Part shown: positions 50,924 to 61,721 of the stretch, piece after piece
Layout: every line of letters starts with the position of its first letter
Numbering within the stretch: the stretch's first letter is position 1
Assembly (NCBI GenBank): GCA_963727625.1
Contig: CAVSHR010000004.1
Coordinates: 320,001-384,000, forward strand
Source: an uncultured delta proteobacterium
Lineage (GTDB): Bacteria; Desulfobacterota; Binatia; UBA9968
Length of the DNA stretch: 64,000 bases
Reading direction: 5' to 3'
Program-made: the position numbers and the translations under genes
The notes under the pieces: generated by a model
The model's input: the letters and a program-made list of their open reading frames with translations, nothing else
The model's database searches: none
Told to the model about the DNA's origin: nothing

Positions 50924-52012
50924 TTATGGCCGACCAAGAGGTTGGATCGCACCGATCCCATCCAGCGGGCTTCGGACTCCCCGCCCGCCACGGTTCAAGA
51001 CGTGGGTATAAATCATCGTCGTACTGACGTCGGCGTGTCCAAGTAACTCTTGCACCGTTCGAATATCATACCCATTTTCAAGTAGATGGGTGGCGAAGGA
51101 ATGGCGCATGCTGTGCGGGGCAGCTGGTTTTGTGATATCAGCCCTGAGCCTGGCCTCTTTGAACGCCTTTTGGAGAACGGACTCGTGGAGATGGTGTCGC
51201 CGTTTTTCTCCTGTGGCCCGATCGATGAAATGGCTAGTCGCAGGAAACACCCATTGCCAACCCCATTCTTTGCCTGCGCTCGGGTATTTTCGCTCCAGCG
51301 CATTTGGCAGACTGACGCGCCCCAGGCCCGCCTTCAGATCCTCTTCGTGCTGCCGCTTCACTGCCTCCAGGTGTTTGAGGAGAGGCTCTTTCACCATGGC
51401 GGGAAGCATAGTGTGTCTGTCTTTATCTCCCTTGCCGGCGCGAACGACTAGCTGGTTCCTGGAAAAGTCGACGTCCTTGACCCTAAGACGGCAACATTCC
51501 ATGAGCCGGAGCCCGGCACCATACAAAAGCATGGCCATCAACCACGGAGTCCCCTCCACACAAGCCAAAAGCCGCTGAACTTCTTCTTTCGTTAAGACGA
51601 CGGGCAGGCGTCTTTGCACTTTGGCGCGAACGACACCCTCAATCAGACCGATTTTTCGCTGCAGCACTGCCTGATATAAAAACAACAGCGCGTTGAAGGC
51701 TTGATTCTGCGTTGATGAGCTAACGTGAGACTCTGTCGCCAGGCTGGAGAGAAAACGGGCAATCTCTGGCTCACCCATTTCCGCCGGATGACGCTTGTTG
51801 TGGAAAAAGATGAACCGCTTGATCCAATGAACATAGCTGTCCTCGGTCTTGGGACTGTAATGCCGCGTGCGGATCGCTTGCCGTACCTGTTCGAGGAGTT
51901 TGGGCTTGTGATCGGCGGGCAGCGGTGAAGCTCCGACTCCAAGGTTTTTACCTCCGTCGATCACGGCAAGCGTGCGGTTCATTGATATGCGCGTATTTAC
52001 TGTTTCCATCAT
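50924..52012 (-). CDS. intI: Integron integrase (tyrosine recombinase)
   Basis: [15 protein letters not shown], IntI-specific insert [45 protein letters not shown]; RBS aaggagg. Confidence 0.97.
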
Positions 52013-52025
52013 GCGCCCTCCTTGA

Positions 52026-52215
52026 TTATCCCGCATAGCGTAGCGACTGCTTCCTCGAAAACTCCTTCGCCAACCGCTCATCTGGTTTTCCGTCGTACCG
52101 CGCCTGCAAGTCGAGCCAGTAACGCTCGGACATGCCGAAGTAGTGCGCGAGGCGATGGGCGATGTCGCCGTTGATCGGCCGCTGGCCCTGGACGATCTCG
52201 TCGATGCGCGAGTGC
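52026..52215 (-). pseudogene. 5'-truncated HigA-like HTH antitoxin copy abutting intI
   Basis: C-terminal [34 protein letters not shown]...SLRYAG near-identical to 52908-53204; N-terminus unrelated. Confidence 0.75.
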
Positions 52216-52907: not shown

Positions 52908-53204
52908 TCATCCTGCGTAACGCAGCGACTGCCTTCCCAAATACTCTTTGGGCAATTCCCCGGCCCGTTCCCCTTCATACTGTGCCTGCAAGTCGAGCCA
53001 GTAACGCTCGGACATGCCGAAGTAGTGCGCGAGGCGATGGGCGATGTCGGGGTTGATTGGGCGCTGGCCCTGGACGATCTCGTAGATGCGCCGCGCCGGC
53101 ACGCCGATATCTCGGGCGAGATGCCAGACACTGATCCCGCGGGGGGCGAGGAAGTCTTCGAGTAAGATTCTGCCAGGGTGTATCATTAAAAGCCTGTTAT
53201 TCAT
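52908..53204 (-). CDS. HigA/VapI-like addiction module antitoxin (orphan)
   Basis: IHPGRILLEDFL.P..LARDIGV..R..EIV.G.R.I..DIA.RL..YFG....WL.LQ. Confidence 0.85.
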   Translation of the reverse strand: MNNRLLMIHPGRILLEDFLAPRGISVWHLARDIGVPARRIYEIVQGQRPINPDIAHRLAHYFGMSERYWLDLQAQYEGERAGELPKEYLGRQSLRYAG

Positions 53205-53233
53205 TGTTGAGTCTCCTTATCTAACTTTCCTAG

Positions 53234-53266
53234 GTTCAAGACGTTCAAACCGTTCAAAAAGTTAAG
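53234..53266 (+). repeat. 9-bp-period GTTCAA array downstream of four-helix-bundle gene
   Basis: GTTCAA at 53234, 53243, 53252; GTTAAG at 53261. Confidence 0.85.
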
Positions 53267-53699
53267 CCGTCTCGGATGGGGTCGAAAAGCTCGGACTTTT
53301 TGGACGCTTTGTCGCAGTATATTTTGATCCTTTCATGCCACTGCCCTTTAAGTAGTCAATTAGATTGCTGATCATAATTGATAAACGCCGCAGTGAATTG
53401 CTGGCATCGCTACAGTCTTTCGCCGCTACATACGATTGATCCAGGGCTACGTAAAGTTGACACCGAGCTTCCCCGCACGATCCTTTAGCGACGTAGAGAA
53501 ACTGAATAAACTCTTGGTTGCCGCCCCGTTCGAATCCTTCGGCAATGTTTGACATGATGGAGACAGCCGCTCGGCGAATCTGATCGCGCAATCCGAAATC
53601 TTTTGAGAATTTCGGATCTCTTGTGAGCTGATAAATTGCCCGTGTTAAGGCCCTAGCATCTTTCCAGATTTCCAAATCTTCAAAGTTTTTCACTTGCAT
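53262..53699 (-). CDS. Four helix bundle protein (23S rRNA IVS-protein family)
   Basis: FEDLEIW..A, F.KDFGLRDQIRRAAVSIMSNIAEGFER, F.QFL..AKGS.GE. Confidence 0.92.
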   Translation of the reverse strand: MQVKNFEDLEIWKDARALTRAIYQLTRDPKFSKDFGLRDQIRRAAVSIMSNIAEGFERGGNQEFIQFLYVAKGSCGEARCQLYVALDQSYVAAKDCSDASNSLRRLSIMISNLIDYLKGSGMKGSKYTATKRPKSPSFSTPSETA

Positions 53700-53711
53700 G
53701 GATGCTCCCTC

Positions 53712-53756
53712 CTAAACAATTTGAACGTTTTGAACGGCTTGAACGATTTGAACGCT
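53712..53756 (-). repeat. 9-bp-period TTGAAC array between imuB and four-helix-bundle gene
   Basis: TTGAAC at 53721, 53730, 53739, 53748. Confidence 0.85.
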
Positions 53757-53758
53757 TT

Positions 53759-55303
53759 TTATTCGACCGTCCCCTGCCAGAACCACCGCCGCCTTACCCG
53801 ATCGTAATACAGCCACAACAAATCCCCGCGGCGGGTTTCGGCGAAGTAATACTCGCGCTGGATTTCCCGGTTCCACCAGCCGCCGGAAAAGACGTAGGGG
53901 CCAGTGAGCTTGTCGATGGTGCCGTGCTTGGGGCCGAGAATCAGCCAGCCGTCTTCGTGCGAGTGGTAGGGCCCGCCGGCGAGGCGAACCGGTTTGGCGG
54001 CGATGCGGCGCACCAACATATTTGGAGCGGAGAGGTTCAAGCCGTTCAAATCGTTCAACTGCTTCGCTCCGTTCAAAACGTTTTTGGGCAATTTAAGCTG
54101 GGTCAAGGGCTCCCAGGTAAAGCGCGCTTCGGGCAGGTGGCCGTCGGTGAGCTTGGCGTACACGACAGATTCTTCGCCGAATTCGGCGCGCAGGCGGGCG
54201 AGCGCGCGGTTGGCGGCGTCGAGGTCGCGCGCCGGCTGCTCGGCGAACAAACGAAGCTGCTCACGGGTCGCGGCGCAGGCTTCGGCGCTGAGCTCGATCT
54301 CGCTGACGCCGGCCGGTAGCTGCAGCGACTCCAGCCGCAACCGGACGAGATCCAATATCTGCGCGGCATCGAGCGTCGGTACCGCCGGACGCAGCGACTC
54401 ACGAAGCCAAGGGCCGTGATGGAGCAGCAAAGCGATCTCGAGCGCGAGCAGCGCCTGATGGCGTTGCGCCAGCGTCGCCAGCAGTGGATGGAGCAGTTGC
54501 TTGATCAAAAACAACAGTCGCGTGCTGTCTTCTTCCGGATCGTCGAGAAGATATTTTTGCCGGGCGGGCTCTTCGGGCGCCTGCGGTACGAGCGGCGTCC
54601 AGAGATCGCCGGCGGCCATGCGGTAAAGCCGGTGCGCCTTTTTGCCGAAGCGCTCGCGCAGCCCGCCCGGCGGCAGCGCCAGCAAGCCGCCGACGGTTTT
54701 GATGCCGAGCTTGAAAAGCATGTCGCGAAAAGCGGGCTCGATATTTAGTCGATTGAGCGGCACTTCGCGCGCGACGTTGCGTTCCTCAGCAAGATCGCGA
54801 AAGATCGTGATTCCCTCTCTCGCTTTGGCGACGGCGTAGCTGCCGAAGCGCGTGAAGCCGACGACAAAATGAGCGGTGAATCCTTGGGCGCATAGATCTT
54901 TCTGCATGGCGCAAGCCCACTGCTTCGGCGAGGCATAGAGCCTCTGCAAACCGGCGCCGTTGAGCCAGAAAACCCCGGGCTCCTCGGCCGACGGCTCAAC
55001 CTCGGGAGTAAAGCGCATGAGGCGGTGGGACAAGTCATCGACGGCTTTTTTATTTTCAGCGGCTGAAATCTCGCCGGCGCGGAGCGTCGAAGCCAGAGAA
55101 AACGCTGCGGCGTAGCGCAGGCCGGGCAGCACACCGTGGCGGCGCGCTTTTTCGTTCACCCAGAGGACCACGCCCTGCGGCTTGTCTTCGGCCACCACCG
55201 CCGCCGGATGGCCGGCCCAGTCGGGATGGCGCCGGAGCAAAAGCTGCAGCGGAAAAGCCGGCAGATCAACACAGGCCAGCCGGTCCGTTGTAAAGCTCTT
55301 CAT
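53759..55303 (-). CDS. imuB: Y-family polymerase-like mutasome protein ImuB
   Basis: ACVDLPAFPLQ, RFTPEVE, LRERFG, C-terminal GGWW...REYYFAE...WLY; overlaps imuA. Confidence 0.92.
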   Translation of the reverse strand: MKSFTTDRLACVDLPAFPLQLLLRRHPDWAGHPAAVVAEDKPQGVVLWVNEKARRHGVLPGLRYAAAFSLASTLRAGEISAAENKKAVDDLSHRLMRFTPEVEPSAEEPGVFWLNGAGLQRLYASPKQWACAMQKDLCAQGFTAHFVVGFTRFGSYAVAKAREGITIFRDLAEERNVAREVPLNRLNIEPAFRDMLFKLGIKTVGGLLALPPGGLRERFGKKAHRLYRMAAGDLWTPLVPQAPEEPARQKYLLDDPEEDSTRLLFLIKQLLHPLLATLAQRHQALLALEIALLLHHGPWLRESLRPAVPTLDAAQILDLVRLRLESLQLPAGVSEIELSAEACAATREQLRLFAEQPARDLDAANRALARLRAEFGEESVVYAKLTDGHLPEARFTWEPLTQLKLPKNVLNGAKQLNDLNGLNLSAPNMLVRRIAAKPVRLAGGPYHSHEDGWLILGPKHGTIDKLTGPYVFSGGWWNREIQREYYFAETRRGDLLWLYYDRVRRRWFWQGTVE

Positions 55304-55922: not shown

Positions 55923-55938
55923 CTGACAACAGCTTCAG
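55923..55938. promoter_or_regulatory. Candidate LexA operator upstream of imuA
   Basis: CTGA-CAACAGCT-TCAG shares CTGA-N8-TCAG with the lexA-promoter palindrome. Confidence 0.4.
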
Positions 55939-55983: not shown

Positions 55984-56039
55984 GCAGGAATGTAGTTGCA
56001 GGAATGTAGTCGCAGGAATGTAGTCGCAGGAATGTAGAA
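55984..56039 (+). repeat. Tandem repeat, 4 x 14 bp
   Basis: GCAGGAATGTAGTT/GTC/GTC/GAA. Confidence 0.95.
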
Positions 56040-56164: not shown

Positions 56165-56713
56165 TCACCGACTCTGAAGGCTCAACCGCGCCACAACGTC
56201 GCTCAGGTAGTCACCGTATCCCCAACCTATGTCCTGCGCACGGTTCCGAACCCGAACGAGACGAGCGGTTGCGCGCGTGCGTTCCTCACTGGAGAGTGCC
56301 CCCAGTGATTTCACGATGGCAGCCACCTTTGTCTCAAGCGCTGAAAAGTACGGATCATCGCCGTACCCAAGGTCGACCGCTTGCTCTGTTCCGGCCTCCA
56401 CAAACGTCAGCATCAGATCAACGCTTCCGGCGACATCACCAGTCGAACGACGATATTCTGTGATCGCCGCACTGGCGTCCCGAAGCCGAATCGGACGCTG
56501 GCTCAGGGGATCCGGAAATACCGCAACCTCGACCAAGTGCCGGTACTTCTCAATCGCCGCGGCCGAAGGAAGAAACCGCGCTTCAAGAAAACGTCGATTT
56601 GCCTCGCTTGCCTCGTGCATGTCGTGAACCAGGCCCACCAGTGCCTTTCGATCAAGGGTATCCAGCCGATTCTTCAGTGCGGCCCAACCAGAACTCTTCA
56701 ACACACGGTTCAC
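56165..56713 (-). CDS. Hypothetical cassette protein
   Basis: 182-aa ORF; DLMLTFVEAG, GWGYGD. Confidence 0.75.
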   Translation of the reverse strand: MNRVLKSSGWAALKNRLDTLDRKALVGLVHDMHEASEANRRFLEARFLPSAAAIEKYRHLVEVAVFPDPLSQRPIRLRDASAAITEYRRSTGDVAGSVDLMLTFVEAGTEQAVDLGYGDDPYFSALETKVAAIVKSLGALSSEERTRATARLVRVRNRAQDIGWGYGDYLSDVVARLSLQSR

Positions 56714-56750
56714 TCTGAGATCCTCGAATTCGAATGAATGATGTTTTGCG

Positions 56751-56807
56751 GGCTAACGCGAAGGCTGAGCGGAGTCTTTAACGCCGATCTCAAGCCGTTA
56801 GTTAGGC
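56751..56807 (-). other. attC site
   Basis: GGCTAAC..GGCTGAG ... CTCAAGCC..GTTAGGC. Confidence 0.85.
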
Positions 56808-56813
56808 GATGAG

Positions 56814-57107
56814 TCAGGCGGCCAATTTCACGGCGACTGAGACACCAGCCTTTGCGCACAGGCCCACGAGGTAGTCCAGAGACAGCTTGTCAACCTTGTT
56901 GCGCGCGATTTCGGAGATGCGGGGCTGGACAATGCCAAGGCGCTTGGCGGCTTCCACCTGGGTAATCCCCTCACGCTCCATCCACTTACGAAGCGCTTCG
57001 GCCAACTCGCAACGCAAAAGCATCACAGCGGCCTCATGCGGTGGGAAGCCGAGATCGAGGAACAGGTTTTTAGAGCCCTTCACTTGCCGTGCTTGCTTCT
57101 TCTTCAT
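56814..57107 (-). CDS. XRE/HTH_37 antitoxin
   Basis: GS.NLF.DLGF, TQ.EAAKRLGI.QPRIS......SLD.L. Confidence 0.88.
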   Translation of the reverse strand: MKKKQARQVKGSKNLFLDLGFPPHEAAVMLLRCELAEALRKWMEREGITQVEAAKRLGIVQPRISEIARNKVDKLSLDYLVGLCAKAGVSVAVKLAA

Positions 57108-57427
57108 GTCTTCTCTCCGATTAACTTGTAACGCTGCGCTGCCAGCCTAATGTCCGCCTGGGCCGTCTTTCGGGTCTTCTTCTGAAAAGCGTGCAAGACA
57201 AAAACCGCTTTCTCGAACTTGGCGACGTACACGACGCGGAACGCCCCGGCGGTATCTCGTATCCGAATTTCGTAGGCTCCGGATCCAACCGTCGGAAGCG
57301 GTTTGAAATCCGCGGGTTCACGCCCGACTTGGACCATGAACAGCTCGTAGCCGGCTTGTCGACGCACCGACTCGGGAAAGGCCGCCAAGTCGCGACGAGC
57401 TGTGCCAAGAAAGCGAACCGGCCTCAT
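57104..57427 (-). CDS. RelE/ParE (Gp49-like, HigB-type) toxin
   Basis: F.G.AR.DL.AFP, EIRI..GAFRVVYVAKF..VLHAFQKKT.KT; promoter TTGCAA-17-TATAAT with operator palindrome ATACGA-N4-TCGTAT. Confidence 0.9.
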   Translation of the reverse strand: MRPVRFLGTARRDLAAFPESVRRQAGYELFMVQVGREPADFKPLPTVGSGAYEIRIRDTAGAFRVVYVAKFEKAVFVLHAFQKKTRKTAQADIRLAAQRYKLIGEKT

Positions 57428-57474
57428 CTCGATGGATTATACGAATAGTCGTATGCACTTGCAAGTGGCCGCAC

Positions 57475-57538
57475 GTCTAACGAGATGCTTCAGGCGCGCG
57501 TTGCTTTGAACGCGTCGCTCTGAAAGCAATGGTTATGC
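57475..57538 (-). other. attC site
   Basis: GTCTAAC..TGCTTCAG ... CTGAAAGCA..GTTATGC. Confidence 0.82.
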
Positions 57539-57829
57539 TGCTGTAAGCCTGACCTTGCCAACTTTCCCGAGCTTTACGCGCTGTTTCGCCTGCCACAAGT
57601 CATAGTTGCATTGCATGGCAAGCCAACTTTCAGGAGAACGTCCCAACGCCTTGGAAAGACGCAGCGCCATCTCAGGACTGACCGCGCTAGTTCCAATAAG
57701 GATGCGATGTAAAGTAGAAGCAGCCACTCCAAGCTTGCTCGCCAGTTCGCGAGCGCTCAGATTGTTGGGCTCCAGATAAACCTCGGCAATGAACTCGCCT
57801 GGATGAGGGGGATTGTGCATAGCCATCAA
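57533..57829 (-). CDS. higA: HigA antitoxin
   Basis: MHNPPHPGEFI..YLEP, SPEMALRLSKALG.SPESWL.MQ. Confidence 0.92.
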   Translation of the reverse strand: MMAMHNPPHPGEFIAEVYLEPNNLSARELASKLGVAASTLHRILIGTSAVSPEMALRLSKALGRSPESWLAMQCNYDLWQAKQRVKLGKVGKVRLTAA

Positions 57830-58104
57830 TGATAATCCTCGTAGTCTAAAATATAAGCGTGTCCGTCTCTGAACTCAAAAGTTAAACGCCAGTTTCCGTT
57901 CACCCACACCGACCAACGGCCACGCTCCGCTCCCTTCAGCGGATGCAGGCGAAACCCAGGAACGTTCATATCTTCAACAGACTGGGCCGTGTCCAGAGCG
58001 ACCAAAAGCATCCGAAGCCGCTTTCCGTGATGGGGTTGAATACCCGCTGCAATTCCGGATTCAAAGAACTTTCTCAGCCCCTTGTGCCGGAATGATTGAA
58101 TCAT
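57826..58104 (-). CDS. higB: HigB (plasmid maintenance killer) toxin
   Basis: MIQSFRHKGL, PGFRLHPLKG, WSV.VNGNWRLTF.F, DYEDYH; upstream palindrome CTTGTTGCG-N5-CGCAACAAG (58118-58140). Confidence 0.93.
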   Translation of the reverse strand: MIQSFRHKGLRKFFESGIAAGIQPHHGKRLRMLLVALDTAQSVEDMNVPGFRLHPLKGAERGRWSVWVNGNWRLTFEFRDGHAYILDYEDYH

Positions 58105-58148
58105 GCGCCAATAATAGCTTGTTGCGCATCACGCAACAAGACCAAGTA

Positions 58149-58277
58149 GTATAACGCGAAGCTGAGCGGGAGGCGAGGAACGGCATAATATATAGACGCA
58201 GCAATTTGAACTTATAAGCTACCAGTCGTTCAAACGTTAAAAGCTTCTCGCCGATCCGTTCAAGCGAATGGTTATGC
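58149..58277 (-). other. attC site (long)
   Basis: GTATAAC..GCTGAGCGG ... CCGTTCAAGC..GTTATGC; R'' complements attI-2 core. Confidence 0.8.
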
Positions 58278-58754
58278 ATTAGCACCACCAGAGCACGCTT
58301 TCTTTACAAACGGTTGAAGTAGCAAAAGCAACAAGAGACCGCTAACTACACCGATAATAAAGGCTGGCCACATGCTTACATAAACTTCAACCGCCCCATC
58401 CGGAAGAGGTGGTATAGGGACGTCTCGGAACTGATAACTTAGAATCGCGAACTTCACGGTCTCGTATAACTCCAGTAGGAACAAGATAGAACAAACTGCC
58501 AGCGCCAATCTTCGTCCCCACGGCCTAAGTTTGAATAATCCGTAAGCAGACACGAAGGCAGCGGCGGGAAGAAAAACACTCCATCCCAAAGACAAAATAA
58601 CAAACCAGATGTAATCCAAATCCACATTAGAGCAATTTACGAGACATCGTAAGGCCAACCAAATTCCACGAGATCCGGCGAGGACCATCCACAAACCGTA
58701 AGCGCCCAAAATAACAGTGATAAACTGAACTACGTAAGATCTATTTTGGAGCAT
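58272..58754 (-). CDS. Hypothetical membrane cassette protein
   Basis: About 4 TM segments; ATG lies in the attI core GTTATGC and TAA in R''. Confidence 0.7.
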   Translation of the reverse strand: MLQNRSYVVQFITVILGAYGLWMVLAGSRGIWLALRCLVNCSNVDLDYIWFVILSLGWSVFLPAAAFVSAYGLFKLRPWGRRLALAVCSILFLLELYETVKFAILSYQFRDVPIPPLPDGAVEVYVSMWPAFIIGVVSGLLLLLLLQPFVKKACSGGANA

Positions 58755-58883
58755 AACTTGTGATTATACTGACCAGTGTAATAACTTTCTTGAAATCACT
58801 CACGACGGCCAATTTCTACAAGCGTTCCAATACCTGTCAACTGTTTTAAAAACGTCGGAAAACTCCATACACTGGTCAGTGTA
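58751..58883 (-). promoter_or_regulatory. attI-2 and putative Pc promoter
   Basis: CTGGTCAG-TATA-N7-GTTATGC, same spacing as attI-1; TTGACA at 58840-58835; second palindrome TACACTGGTCAGTGTA at 58868. Confidence 0.75.
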
Positions 58884-58897
58884 TGAATATTACACTG

Positions 58898-58964
58898 CTA
58901 GCGGTCGCCTCCGGTCAAGAAATCCGCCGGGCTCCGAACTCAGCACATGGGTGTAAATCATCGT
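58898..58964 (-). pseudogene. intI: Relic of a second intI 3' end
   Basis: Encodes TMIYTHVL / VRSPADFLTGGDR*, the IntI C-terminus with about 17 nt deleted. Confidence 0.8.
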
Positions 58965-58986
58965 GGCACCTTCGGACCGAAGATTT

Positions 58987-59020
58987 ATTCCAAATGTTCC
59001 AGGTGTTCCAATCGTTCAAC
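58987..59020 (+). repeat. 9-bp-period GTTC(C/A)A array
   Basis: GTTCCA 58996, 59005; GTTCAA 59014. Confidence 0.7.
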
Positions 59021-59050
59021 CCCGTTGATGATAACATCTAACTCGCACTA

Positions 59051-59791
59051 TTAACCCAAAATCCGCTTTGAGCTTCTCGAACCTATTTCCGGCATTTCGT
59101 CCCATGTTCTGCCGTCCAGCTTACGACCCGTAAGCTTCTTTCTCGTCCCGCCCCATTGTTTAAAGAAGAATGGAACCCCTTGAGCGATGCATCGGTCTCT
59201 AATCTTTCTGACCCACTGCGGATCAATAATACGCGCTCCAGGACCAGACTCACCACCGACAATTACCCACTGGATTCCTTGGAGTGGTAATCGAGGAATA
59301 GGTCCCAACAAAGGCTCAACTGAGAGAAACCGGACTGCTGCAGGCACTTTTCGCAAATGCTCAATGCGATAAGCATATTCCGCATTCTCAACGCTCACGC
59401 CCATCCAGATATTGTCATGCCAGGGAAGTTTTCTTGCGAGCTCGAAAACTCTTTCCGCGCGCTTCGTTAAAATCTGGAAGGTATGCCAAGGAGTTTTTCC
59501 CATCACGTCAAAAACCGATCGGATGAATTCAAACGGCACATCAGGATGAAACAAATCGCTCATGGAATTGACGAAAATCTTCCGTGGCTGATGCCAGCGC
59601 AGAGGCTGACCGAGAACATCCGGCTGTAAGGTTACAGCGAAATTATTCCGATACCTCACCTGCCCCATCGCATACAGCCTGCGCGCCATCCGATGCGCGT
59701 AACAGTTCTTGCACCCTGGGCTAATTTTCGTGCATCCGGTCACCGGGTTCCAGGTTGCGTCAGTCCATTCAATCGCCGAATCTTGGGCCAT
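59051..59791 (-). CDS. DUF5131 / phage Gp37-Gp68 family three-Cys-motif (radical-SAM-like) protein
   Basis: [54 protein letters not shown]. Confidence 0.92.
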
Positions 59792-59801
59792 ATATACCTC
59801 A

Positions 59802-60656
59802 CTAAAATTCGAAGCCTGTTTGCGGGTCTGAATATTTCTTTGTTTCGCTCCAAAACTTTGCACCTAGCTCACTTCTGCTGTAAAGAGCGAGCCTGTATAG
59901 GGGTAAATTTTTTTCGCCGCGAATCAATTTGGATTCGTTTATCCCAGGGTCGATGTATCTGAGTTTCTGCATTGAACGTCTAAATTCCTCAACTACGAAG
60001 CGCTCAAACGACTTACCAGACGGTTTCTCTTTATCCCAGCGAACACGCCAATCGGGGTTCCCAACAAAATTTTCCAACGTCTTATTAACATCCCGAACAT
60101 AGTGCTGCTCGTTGCGGTTTGCGTCCATTGCCGAGGGAATGAGCACCAAGAAATCCACAAATCTTTGTGACAAGCTCTCTATTGTTGAAAAATTTAAGTT
60201 CTGCATCTGAAATGGATCAAGGAAGCAAAAACCTAGCACTTTATGGTTTTTCCCTGGGCGTGGCATCTCAGCAATAATTCGCTCTACTAAAAGGTTGGCG
60301 TCCCCGGAAATAACCGATATTTTTCGATCAGGAAACTCTCGCTGGCACCGTTTTACGAGTGTGTCGGCATTAATTCTATCGCCTTCGCAAAAAATGTATT
60401 TATCAAATGCCTCGGGCATCCCAAGGATCAAAAGAGGAGACGCGTTCACAATTCGCTTTGTTCCCCGAATTCGAGACCGTCCTGAACCCGCAAACAAATC
60501 TAAGTAAATTATTTCATCCCATTTGGTGCGTATGGATTTTATAAAAAGCGACGCATAGAAAAGTACGTGGCGATATTTATCTTCACCCCAAGCGCCAATT
60601 TCTGGGGTTGGTAGCCCGTCCTCTTTCAGTGCTTTAAGAGGCTGTATATTCGCCAT
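59802..60656 (-). CDS. tcmP: Three-Cys-motif partner protein TcmP (methyltransferase-like)
   Basis: [25 protein letters not shown]; adjacent to DUF5131 gene. Confidence 0.85.
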
Positions 60657-60845
60657 ACAGGGATTTCCTACCAAACTGTACATACATTACTGCGTCGTTT
60701 CGAAGCAATTAAAATGCACCTACAACGATAGCCGCTGCTTTGAGGTCGGTACCACAACGAATCCTGAAAAACTAGCCAAACATTAGATGGGCTTCCGCCC
60801 ACACTGCATCGAACCGTTCCAGGAGAGAAGTTTCGAAGTTTGACA

Positions 60846-60935
60846 GTTTCAATCGTTCCAACGGTTCGAATGGTTCAATCCGGTCGAATCTGTTTAAACG
60901 ACTGGAACGTTTTGAACGACTTGAACGATTGGAAC
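60846..60935. repeat. Head-to-head 9-bp-period GTTC/GAAC arrays directly after lexA
   Basis: GTTC-type units 60846-60887 then T(T/G)GAAC units at 60903, 60912, 60921, 60930. Confidence 0.8.
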
Positions 60936-60937
60936 TC

Positions 60938-61546
60938 CTAGAATTTTCTCAATAACCCGACGACCTTCCCAGCGATGCGAAACTCTCCCTGTGAAACGGT
61001 AATCGGGGCGTATTTTTCATTTTCCGCTTTAAGCGTGACGACACCGTCTTTTTTAAAAAATCGCTTTAACGTCGCCTCGCCGTCGATCACGGCGCAGACG
61101 ATCTCGCCGTTTTCCGCCCCTGCCTGTTGCTTCACGATCACCCGGTCGCCGTCCATGATGCCGGCGCCGATCATGCTGTCGCCTTTGACTTGGAGCGCGA
61201 AAGTTTTCCCGCTGCTCATGTCGTCGGGGATGGTGATGACGCCTTCAATATTTTCTTCGCTGAGAAAGGGTTTACCGGCGGGCACCCGGCCCAAAACCGG
61301 CGCTTCCCGAGTAGCGGTTAGAGCCGCTTTCCCTAAGGCGTTGACGACTTCGATGGCGCGCTTGCCGACCCGGCGGATGTAGCCCTTCTTTTCCAAGGCT
61401 TTCAGATGGTCGGAGACACCGTTGGTCGAGGCGATCTTGAAGCGCCGGCCGATCTCGTGGATCGACGGCGCGAAGCCCTTTTCTCGGATAGTCTTCAGCA
61501 GAAAATCGTAGATCGCCTTTTGCCGGTCGGTGAGCGATGGAAGCAT
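60938..61546 (-). CDS. lexA: SOS transcriptional repressor LexA
   Basis: LTDRQ..PS..EI..F...STNGV..HL.ALEKKGYI; VPAG cleavage site; GDSM (Ser) and TLKR (Lys). Confidence 0.96.
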   Translation of the reverse strand: MLPSLTDRQKAIYDFLLKTIREKGFAPSIHEIGRRFKIASTNGVSDHLKALEKKGYIRRVGKRAIEVVNALGKAALTATREAPVLGRVPAGKPFLSEENIEGVITIPDDMSSGKTFALQVKGDSMIGAGIMDGDRVIVKQQAGAENGEIVCAVIDGEATLKRFFKKDGVVTLKAENEKYAPITVSQGEFRIAGKVVGLLRKF

Positions 61547-61553
61547 GAAAGCT

Positions 61554-61582
61554 TGTATACTGAAAATATTTTCAGTAGTCAA
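61554..61582 (-). promoter_or_regulatory. lexA promoter with perfect 20-bp palindromic operator
   Basis: TTGACT-17-TATACA, 7 nt before ATG; spacer holds TACTGAAAATATTTTCAGTA (61558-61577). Confidence 0.8.
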
Positions 61583-61613: not shown

Positions 61614-61721
61614 GTTCAAGGGTTCGAGGTTCAAAAGCTCAAGGGCTTAAACCGTGCTTCTAACGCGGTTATCGGACAATCCCAGTCCGGCCCTGAACCT
61701 TGAACAATTGAACTTTTGAAC
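61614..61721. repeat. Inverted 7-8-bp-period GTTCAA/TTGAAC arrays upstream of lexA
   Basis: GTTC(A/G)A at 61614, 61622, 61629; TTGAAC at 61700, 61708, 61716. Confidence 0.75.

Follow-up and report, generated by a model that had tools for sequence, protein, structure and literature searches.

The four-helix-bundle gene and its inverted arrays

The DNA analysed here is a 64,000-nt window of contig CAVSHR010000004.1 from an uncultured delta proteobacterium of the class Binatia (genome G000; coordinates are positions in this window unless a contig, C, is named). On its minus strand, at the junction of imuB and a higA-like gene, lies a gene for a 145-amino-acid four-helix-bundle protein (53262-53699, stop codon TAA at 53262-53264) that is enclosed by two inverted arrays of short tandem units. 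We call the arrays arms, and the gene with its arms the cassette. The 5' arm in the sense of the gene (53721-53756, minus strand) lies 5 nt past the imuB stop codon (53759-53761) and has four GTTCAA-N3 units on the transcript, which appear on the plus strand as TTGAAC at 53721, 53730, 53739 and 53748. Between this arm and the gene is the Shine-Dalgarno sequence AGGAGGG (53707-53713, minus strand). The 3' arm (53232-53261, minus strand), located 4 nt past the stop codon of the gene, has three TTGAAC-N3 units on the transcript, read on the plus strand as GTTCAA at 53234, 53243 and 53252 with a period of 9. A third array lies in frame within imuB (54035-54076, minus strand) and offers the 5' arm an alternative partner. 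It consists of three units (GTTCAA at 54035, 54044 and 54053), a 12-nt insert CTGCTTCGCTCC at 54059-54070 and one more unit at 54071, and is translated by imuB as ..VLNGAKQLNDLNGLN... The sequence GTTCAANNNGTTCAA, with at most one mismatch, matched the window 12 times against 0.34 matches expected, and 0 of 100 shuffled sequences reached 12. An initial annotation, made from the sequence alone, had described both the enclosing arrays and the array inside imuB, and all three were confirmed.

The encoded protein belongs to the family named after intervening sequences (IVS) of 23S rRNA. PF05635 (23S_rRNA_IVP) was the sole Pfam match of the open reading frame (ORF) 53262-53699 (119.3 bits, cut-off 33.8, E 1.1e-34), and TIGR02436, "four helix bundle protein", matched it with 115.3 bits against a cut-off of 24. 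To our knowledge, no function has been established for PF05635, a large family, and the origin of the rRNA intervening sequences has been open since the early 1990s. The link of the cassette gene to these sequences, also drawn in the initial annotation, is correct at the family level (PF05635; PMC4990558), and that paper calls function and origin unclear. The structure predicted from 38 aligned relatives (pLDDT 91.3) had four long helices within residues 10-119 and a disordered basic tail of residues 120-145. Foldseek matched it to 2GSC (TM 0.90-0.93) and 2RLD (TM 0.80-0.88), two solved PF05635-family proteins with no assigned function, which ranked ahead of the Avd protein considered below. 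The core motif N-I-A-E-G in helix 2 (N51, I52, A53, E54, G55) was invariant in 38 of 38 aligned sequences.

Among 17 intact orthologues the median ratio of nonsynonymous to synonymous divergence (dN/dS) was 0.088, calculated from the 34 of 136 pairs with usable dS, the others being saturated (median dS 1.97). A ratio of about 0.09 means strong purifying selection, and the four-helix-bundle protein is therefore functional. The GTTCAA or GTTCCA cores of the arms were retained in all 17 orthologous cassettes except that of G008, so that at a median dS of about 2 the hexamer cores have outlasted a divergence at which neutral DNA is randomised.

The minus-strand RNA 53215-53775 was folded, and the arms were predicted to pair. 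In the minimum-free-energy (MFE) structure, 53707-53756 pairs with 53232-53280 through about 44 pairs, and the Shine-Dalgarno sequence is included in the stem, where it pairs with 53274-53280. Closure of the cassette by at least 20 flank-to-flank pairs in the MFE structure was found for 15 of the 17 intact orthologous cassettes. The RNAduplex energy of the 115-nt flanks was dropped as a statistic: random GC-rich flanks gave equal or lower energies, and this non-discriminating measure was replaced by a local-alignment score. No promoter-like or terminator-like site was detected in 53200-53800, including the space between imuB and the cassette, and an Rfam scan of the window found no family. A gene for RNase III is present in the genome.

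The upstream neighbour imuB (53759-55303, minus strand) has an IMS family match and stands together with imuA, a RecA-like match in Pfam. Downstream of the cassette follow the HTH_3 (higA-like) gene with its own Shine-Dalgarno sequence (52908-53204, minus strand), a HicB-like gene and a tyrosine recombinase gene, all on the same strand as imuA and imuB. A 182-nt stretch at the 3' end of the higA-like gene is present in two copies with 83% identity (52028-52209 and 52910-53091), which are separated by the HicB-like gene and a small ORF, and the truncated copy abuts the recombinase gene, which is integron-integrase-like (50924-52081). In the related genome G005 a truncated higA tail directly follows the cassette and precedes the recombinase gene; the tail of the higA gene may be an entry site for small cassettes. 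Upstream of imuA, a 14-nt unit GCAGGAATGTAGTC (plus strand) is repeated in 3.9 copies with 97% identity at 55984-56037.

Cassettes and arrays within and beyond the genus

Two slots, one after imuB and one after lexA, were compared among genomes of the genus. These genomes are metagenome-assembled, so absence from an incomplete one is weak evidence, and kin are not independent; G005 was taken as one case in each slot count and as two rows in the tree and in the dN/dS set, and no conclusion hangs on it. Across 16 genomes the slot after imuB was filled in 11, held a decayed remnant in one (G001) and a left array only in another (G021), and was without gene or arrays in three (G008, G011, G015), with higA directly after imuB in G008. 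In G019 and G018 the imuB-slot cassette is present and its ORF is disrupted. The slot after lexA was filled with the same gene clade in 9 of 18 genomes, held a gene-less hairpin in 8 and held nothing in one; among the lexA-slot genes, that of G017 is truncated and that of G008 has no recognisable arms. One of the 8 hairpins is in our window (60846-60935, minus strand). It is of the same unit family as the cassette arms and lies directly past the stop codon of lexA (60938-61546, minus strand; LexA_DNA_bind and Peptidase_S24), the gene which defines this second slot. In relatives, the lexA-slot cassette is its filled equivalent. Up to the ribosome-binding site, its left arm is nearly the same, base by base, as that of the filled cassette in G019; the gene is missing beyond this point. 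A stretch in the loop of the empty hairpin, GGATTCGA, was compared with AEGFERG codons as a possible ORF remnant. This idea was rejected, the stretch being the innermost unit of the right arm in degenerate form.

At the imuB–higA junction the gene and both arms were present or absent jointly, G021 having one arm only. The comparison of filled and empty sites that the initial annotation had called for bears out its suggestion that the arrays mark the two ends of a single unit. Three arm types occur, namely GTTCAA of period 9, GTTCAA of period 8, and GTTCCA of period 9 with TGGAAC opposite, and both sides always change together. Behind the cassettes of G012, G006, G016 and G021 there is a second, older right arm; these left-over arms suggest serial replacement at one slot. 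The genes downstream of the imuB-slot cassette vary among genomes, and in G020, G024 and G008 the order is lexA-cassette-imuA-imuB.

A maximum-likelihood tree was built from 17 proteins of the genus and two outgroups, with one disrupted ORF omitted, and most of its forks were unresolved. Two well-supported clades nevertheless crossed slots. One (support 99/96) comprised the four genes with GTTCCA/TGGAAC arms, which lie in the imuB slot, in the lexA slot and at a further site. In the other (99/99), the copy that G014 has in the imuB slot joined those that G014 and G019 have in the lexA slot. Arm type hence tracks the protein clade and not the slot, which means that gene and arms travel together. 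They have been gained, lost, replaced and copied between the SOS-locus slots after imuB and after lexA, and they very probably constitute one mobile or exchangeable unit.

Other features of the window surround these slots. About 5 kb of accessory genes (56165-60683) lie between imuA and the lexA hairpin, including two gene pairs of toxin-antitoxin type (Gp49/HTH_37 and HigB/HTH_3), a DUF5131 gene, and ORFs with no assignment. A pattern scan of the window found a solo GTTCCA/GTTCAA array after the DUF5131 gene (58987-59020, plus strand), and period-8 inverted GTTCAA arrays with a 50-nt loop, a further gene-less member of the family, are located upstream of lexA (61614-61721, strand unspecified). 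A perfect 20-nt palindrome, TACTGAAAATATTTTCAGTA, at 61558-61577, 12 nt before the lexA ATG (61546), is likely, from its sequence, to be an Escherichia coli-type LexA box; a weaker CTG-N10-CAG is found at 55923-55938, immediately before imuA. The palindrome was considered as a link between the cassette and the SOS response and rejected, the pattern count in the window being at chance (14 against 12.2 expected).

Alignment of ImuB proteins placed the third array in a linker of variable length. The linker is short (KLP-KPK..) in G021, G001, G005, G011, G015, G029 and G027, and has 6-13 extra residues in LNx units in G000, G003, G009, G006, G008 and G018. G016 (locus L005) and G012 (L006) have a different in-frame insert, ..ACPEHGRREPKSD.., instead of the LNx array, and ImuB of G008 carries a further insert STGLRTGSAKRLNGWNGQ besides it. 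The period of 9 equals three codons. Judging from this alignment, the imuB array is an in-frame insertion into a tolerant, variable linker, and arrays which enter coding sequence in frame are a source of protein length variation. In two loci of other genera, L016 (G029) and L018 (G027), imuB is followed by short-period arrays (AAAAGTA, GTCAGAG and GCAAAGAC units) and then by dnaE2; the space after imuB thus appears to draw arrays beyond the genus too.

Arrays of at least three units, with at most one mismatch per unit, were counted in the 6.6-Mb assembly. There were 206, with a dominant period of 9 in 114, of 8 in 57 and of 7 in 34, and arrays of exact units numbered 107 against 0 in shuffled sequence. 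They are mostly intergenic: long open frames hold 31 of the 206 (15%) and, by comparison, 2205 of 3000 random segments. Close pairs ordered GTTCAA..TTGAAC, which are gene-less hairpins, were found 31 times and the opposite order twice. A 12-nt insert, CCGCTGCGCTCC with its variants, recurs within arrays, including that of imuB. All 24 genomes of the genus had triple units, 3 to 193 per genome, and 16 genomes from other genera of the order had 0 or 1; the GTTCAA array family is confined to the genus. Further array families in the genome have the unit GGAGT (period 8) or the units AGGCA, TCCAAAA, TCCGAAA, GAGGCGT and CTCAGC (period 7). Five period-9 GTTCAA hairpins of G000 (C4:496823-496948, C7:197472-197621, C12:145432-145581, C12:649858-650007 and C12:655529-655661) have a second, GC-rich hairpin nested in the loop, CCTCCCCCGCG-ACG-CGGGGGAGG, and form a composite gene-less subfamily.

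Across genomes the co-occurrence of gene and arrays was loose, which argues against strict dependence of one on the other. G004 (92% complete) had 93 GTTCAA triple units and no four-helix-bundle homologue above 38% identity, and G022, G023 and G015 had many arrays and no homologue at 60% or more. Conversely, G008 and G021 have the gene with only 3 and 12 triple units. The idea of a separate cognate gene for each unit variant was also considered. Among the genes examined, the number of GTTCCA arrays per genome does not track GTTCCA-armed genes: G014 has 232 such arrays yet its genes are GTTCAA-armed, and the two units are also mixed within single arrays.

The enclosure of PF05635 genes is not peculiar to this locus. 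The genome has 11 PF05635 matches, five of which showed inverted repeats in their flanks that scored above all 3000 random flank pairs; the score of a sixth was matched by 1 of 3000. Each of the six is enclosed by a different unit (AGGCA, GGAGT, TCCAAAA, TCCGAAA and GGGCA besides GTTCAA), and every unit is also dispersed in the genome. Among the remaining five, two have degenerate GACCG/CGGTC runs, recognised by eye only, one is truncated with a one-sided array, and two are without convincing arms. Very long GGGCA-type heptamer arrays, of 12 and 31 units (G000 C11:202184-202270 and C11:203889-204102), surround a PF05635 gene that has rfbC-like and rfbB-like genes on its two sides; this apparent polysaccharide locus has three more PF05635 genes within 15 kb.

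A scan of species-representative genomes with a 4-sequence alignment as query gave 593 relatives. The best 80 of them were retained, and 79 had both flanks. Inverted repeats above the 99th percentile of mismatched flanks enclosed 46 of these 79. By their record titles the armed relatives come from Omnitrophota, Acidobacteriota, Chloroflexota, Planctomycetota, Bacteroidota, Cyanobacteria, Proteobacteria and others. At 18 such foreign loci, 21 flanks held same-strand genes with Pfam support, among them atpA/atpG, HlyD/AcrB, trpG/trpD, MoxR/DUF58, Cas6 and LpxK; six opposite-strand flank ORFs gave no Pfam hit in a sample picked mostly from same-strand ORFs. Across phyla, the similarity of arms increased with protein identity: both arms were similar in 13 of 82 pairs of relatives at 60% protein identity or more, in 7 of 412 at 50-60% and in 2 of 3334 below 50%. 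The relatives at 58% and 50% identity, from Omnitrophota and Acidobacteriota, have GTTCAA-like units, and a clade with AGTGCTG units spans Chloroflexota and Planctomycetota. AGTGCTG/CAGCACT arms were seen at L082, L084, L087, L089, L101, L114 and L116, in assemblies labelled Thermoflexus, Planctomycetota, Dehalococcoidia, Bacteroidetes and Phycisphaerae. The shared unit suggests either that one cassette lineage has spread horizontally or that the unit is constrained.

Competing explanations

We favour, with a probability of about 0.6, the reading that the cassette is an IVS-type element residing in a protein-coding operon: a promoter-less PF05635 gene with its ribosome-binding site within two inverted arms of 3-5 units. 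It would be transcribed by read-through from imuAB; on the transcript the arms would pair into a stem of about 44 bp, which would cover the ribosome-binding site and be of sufficient length for the RNase III encoded in the genome, and RNase III could then harmlessly remove the insertion from the host transcript, as in rRNA. That the arms act mainly as such a processed RNA stem is a more tentative proposition, to which we would give somewhat less than even odds.

Several results weigh against this reading. The fold of the whole molecule 53215-53775 had a z of only -2.2, and when the array inside imuB was included the MFE structure paired that array with the 5' arm (z -3.9), so that the alternative pairing put forward in the initial annotation is predicted as well. 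The Shine-Dalgarno sequence was paired to the 3' region in only 8 of the 17 orthologous cassettes. Mismatches between the arms, on the sense strand, were G-U in 73 cases, A-C in 84 and other in 214 (p 0.42), counted with modest power in the 55 of 86 cassettes with alignable arms, where periodic arms may align out of register. Were the stem under selection in the sense RNA, G-U would be expected to predominate; given that there is no G-U excess, it is the complementarity itself that speaks for RNA-stem selection, and these strand-symmetric mismatches are the main result against the arms as purely RNA structure. The spacers of the units come from a small vocabulary (GCC 44, ATC 32 and AAC 24, together 100 of 194), and conservation of the hexamers beyond the needs of pairing, together with the few spacers, points to sequence-specific recognition or descent by copying, not to a mere stem. 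No recombinase of the cassette's own was found, and no target-site duplication was seen between filled G000 and empty G008, whose flanks are too diverged for this comparison (imuB 66% identical). The slot data fit either order of events, loss of the gene from a filled cassette or entry of the gene into a hairpin.

Part of this evidence fits an element that works at the DNA level, in which the arms serve as terminal inverted arrays of sites for protein binding, much like multi-site transposon ends or iterons. Either the four-helix-bundle protein or a host factor would bind them, the element would be moved or copied as DNA by recombination at existing arrays, and the RNA stem would be a by-product. 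The strand symmetry of the arm mismatches, the hexamer core kept despite saturated synonymous sites, the small and strand-specific spacer vocabulary and the excess of one orientation among close pairs (31 against 2) all agree with this, as do the landing of cassettes at existing arrays with old right arms left behind and the units kept by protein clades across phyla (the AGTGCTG clade and the GTTCAA-like units of the 58% and 50% relatives). However, the helical protein of 145 amino acids has no nuclease or recombinase fold, the lack of a visible target-site duplication counts here too, and the numbers of arrays do not follow the gene, as is seen in G004 with 93 arrays and no close homologue, in G008 and G021 with the gene and 3 and 12 arrays, and in the GTTCCA counts. 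On balance we think the DNA-level explanation unlikely, while giving it appreciable weight.

A more specific idea regards the arms as a switch of the SOS operon, in which the arm after imuB pairs either with the array in imuB or with the arm after the gene and so couples imuB translation to downstream expression. Both pairings are indeed predicted, all the genes are on one strand with no terminator between them, and both slots belong to the lexA/imuAB locus. The array within imuB, though, is missing in 8 of 16 aligned ImuB proteins, including those of the cassette-bearing G016 and G012, the downstream genes differ among genomes, and relatives of the cassette reside in unrelated operons of other phyla. 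A switch of this kind is quite improbable, and the gate for read-through from imuAB to higA-intI, as specified in the initial annotation, is not supported, with cassette relatives located between unrelated operon genes and 206 copies of the arrays throughout the genome. Still less credible is plain coincidence, a gene that merely happens to lie between two generic intergenic repeats of the genus. The abundance of the arrays (206, only 31 or 15% of them in long open frames) and their occurrence in 24 of 24 genus genomes regardless of a close homologue of the gene would allow it, but 0 of 3000 random flank pairs reached the score of the cassette, different units surround the other paralogues, enclosure was also found for 46 of the 79 relatives from other phyla (among the best 80 of 593), and arm type co-varies with protein clade. 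We regard coincidence as very improbable.

More speculatively, the four-helix-bundle protein might be a partner that recognises its own arm units by their sequence. As an Avd-like oligomer it would read tandem hexamers in DNA or RNA and drive copying of the cassette and the gene-less hairpins, possibly through recruitment of a host reverse transcriptase or recombination enzyme. Clades that keep their unit across phyla and slots, and cores conserved at a dS of about 2, fit this conjecture and do not require it; we consider it improbable at present. At two defined slots, the one genus offers a natural series of cassettes that have been filled, emptied, replaced or duplicated. The locus ties the PF05635 family to dispersed short-period repeats and makes three questions testable: whether RNase III cuts such stems in mRNA, whether the protein binds the arms, and how the hairpins are copied.

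Comparison with known systems

The fold of the cassette protein is that of Avd, the accessory protein of diversity-generating retroelements (DGRs; PMC10053308). Foldseek gave a probability of 1.00 and a TM of 0.84 to 4dwl_C (PDB 4DWL) and also matched the DGR reverse-transcriptase complexes 8UBE and 8UB7. Sequence identity to Avd is, in contrast, about 14%, and a sequence-profile search of solved structures did not reach Avd, which was found by the fold search alone. No reverse transcriptase, template repeat or variable repeat was found near the cassette; the genome has 7 RVT_1 genes and 11 PF05635 genes, the nearest pair about 100 kb apart. Since no reverse transcriptase gene is near any PF05635 gene, the cassette is not a DGR.

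Two other systems resemble the cassette in layout. In REPIN-RAYT systems (PMC3116915 and PMC3337134), a gene is flanked by inverted short repeats that are also dispersed as hairpin-forming doublets. The cassette likewise has a single gene flanked by an inverted repeat that is dispersed as inverted doublets (206 arrays with 31 close pairs here), and is similarly lineage-restricted with mostly vertical inheritance. Unlike REPIN-RAYT, it encloses a four-helix bundle and not a Y1 transposase, its repeats are tandem unit arrays, and co-occurrence of gene and repeats is not strict. The Correia repeat-enclosed elements of Neisseria are small inverted-repeat elements within transcripts, with stems that RNase III binds and can cut and effects on neighbouring genes (PMC2649163), but there is no gene in them, and their arms do not consist of tandem units. 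REPIN-RAYT and the Correia elements serve as functional analogies, and the link to Avd holds at the level of fold only.

An integron gene cassette, with one attC at its 3' end and dependence on an integrase, was compared by layout and rejected, the cassette here having two inverted arms; no integrase was found in the examined flanks of operon-borne cassettes in other phyla. Cyanobacterial heptamer repeats (STRR) are dispersed, intergenic arrays of tandem 7-nt units whose origin is unexplained, reportedly described by Mazel et al. in 1990; the units of the present family, in contrast, are 8-9 nt. A preprint (10.1101/2022.06.06.494920) deals with heptamer repeats near recF/recO/recR. We found no published link between STRR and PF05635 genes. 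If the protein were indeed the partner of its arms, PF05635 genes and the dispersed arrays of 7-9-nt units found in many bacteria, the cyanobacterial heptamers included, would together form a REPIN-RAYT-like replicator with a non-catalytic protein.

In the literature covered, which leaves out most subscription journals, no account was found of PF05635 genes that have repeat arms at sites outside rRNA. The closest described system is the ORF-bearing IVS of 23S rRNA. In Coxiella burnetii the helix-45 IVS bears the S23p ORF, a PF05635 homologue, and RNase III cuts its 28-bp stem (PMC4990558); Leptospira also has ORF-bearing IVS (Ralph and McClelland 1993, as cited there). Both elements encode a PF05635 protein, both are about 430-530 nt in size, and both place the ORF in the loop of a long terminal stem, of 28 bp in Coxiella and of about 44 bp as predicted here. 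Both are also distributed sporadically, and mobility of the IVS was suspected by its authors. The element described here differs in lying between imuB and an HTH gene and not in a 23S rRNA helix, and excision by RNase III has been shown for the IVS, while here it would follow from the predicted stem. Its additions over the IVS are arms made of tandem 8-9-nt units, membership of these arms in a dispersed genome-wide family, and gene-less hairpin derivatives. On the IVS-type reading, the rRNA intervening sequences would be one particular form of a general type of cassette residing within operons.

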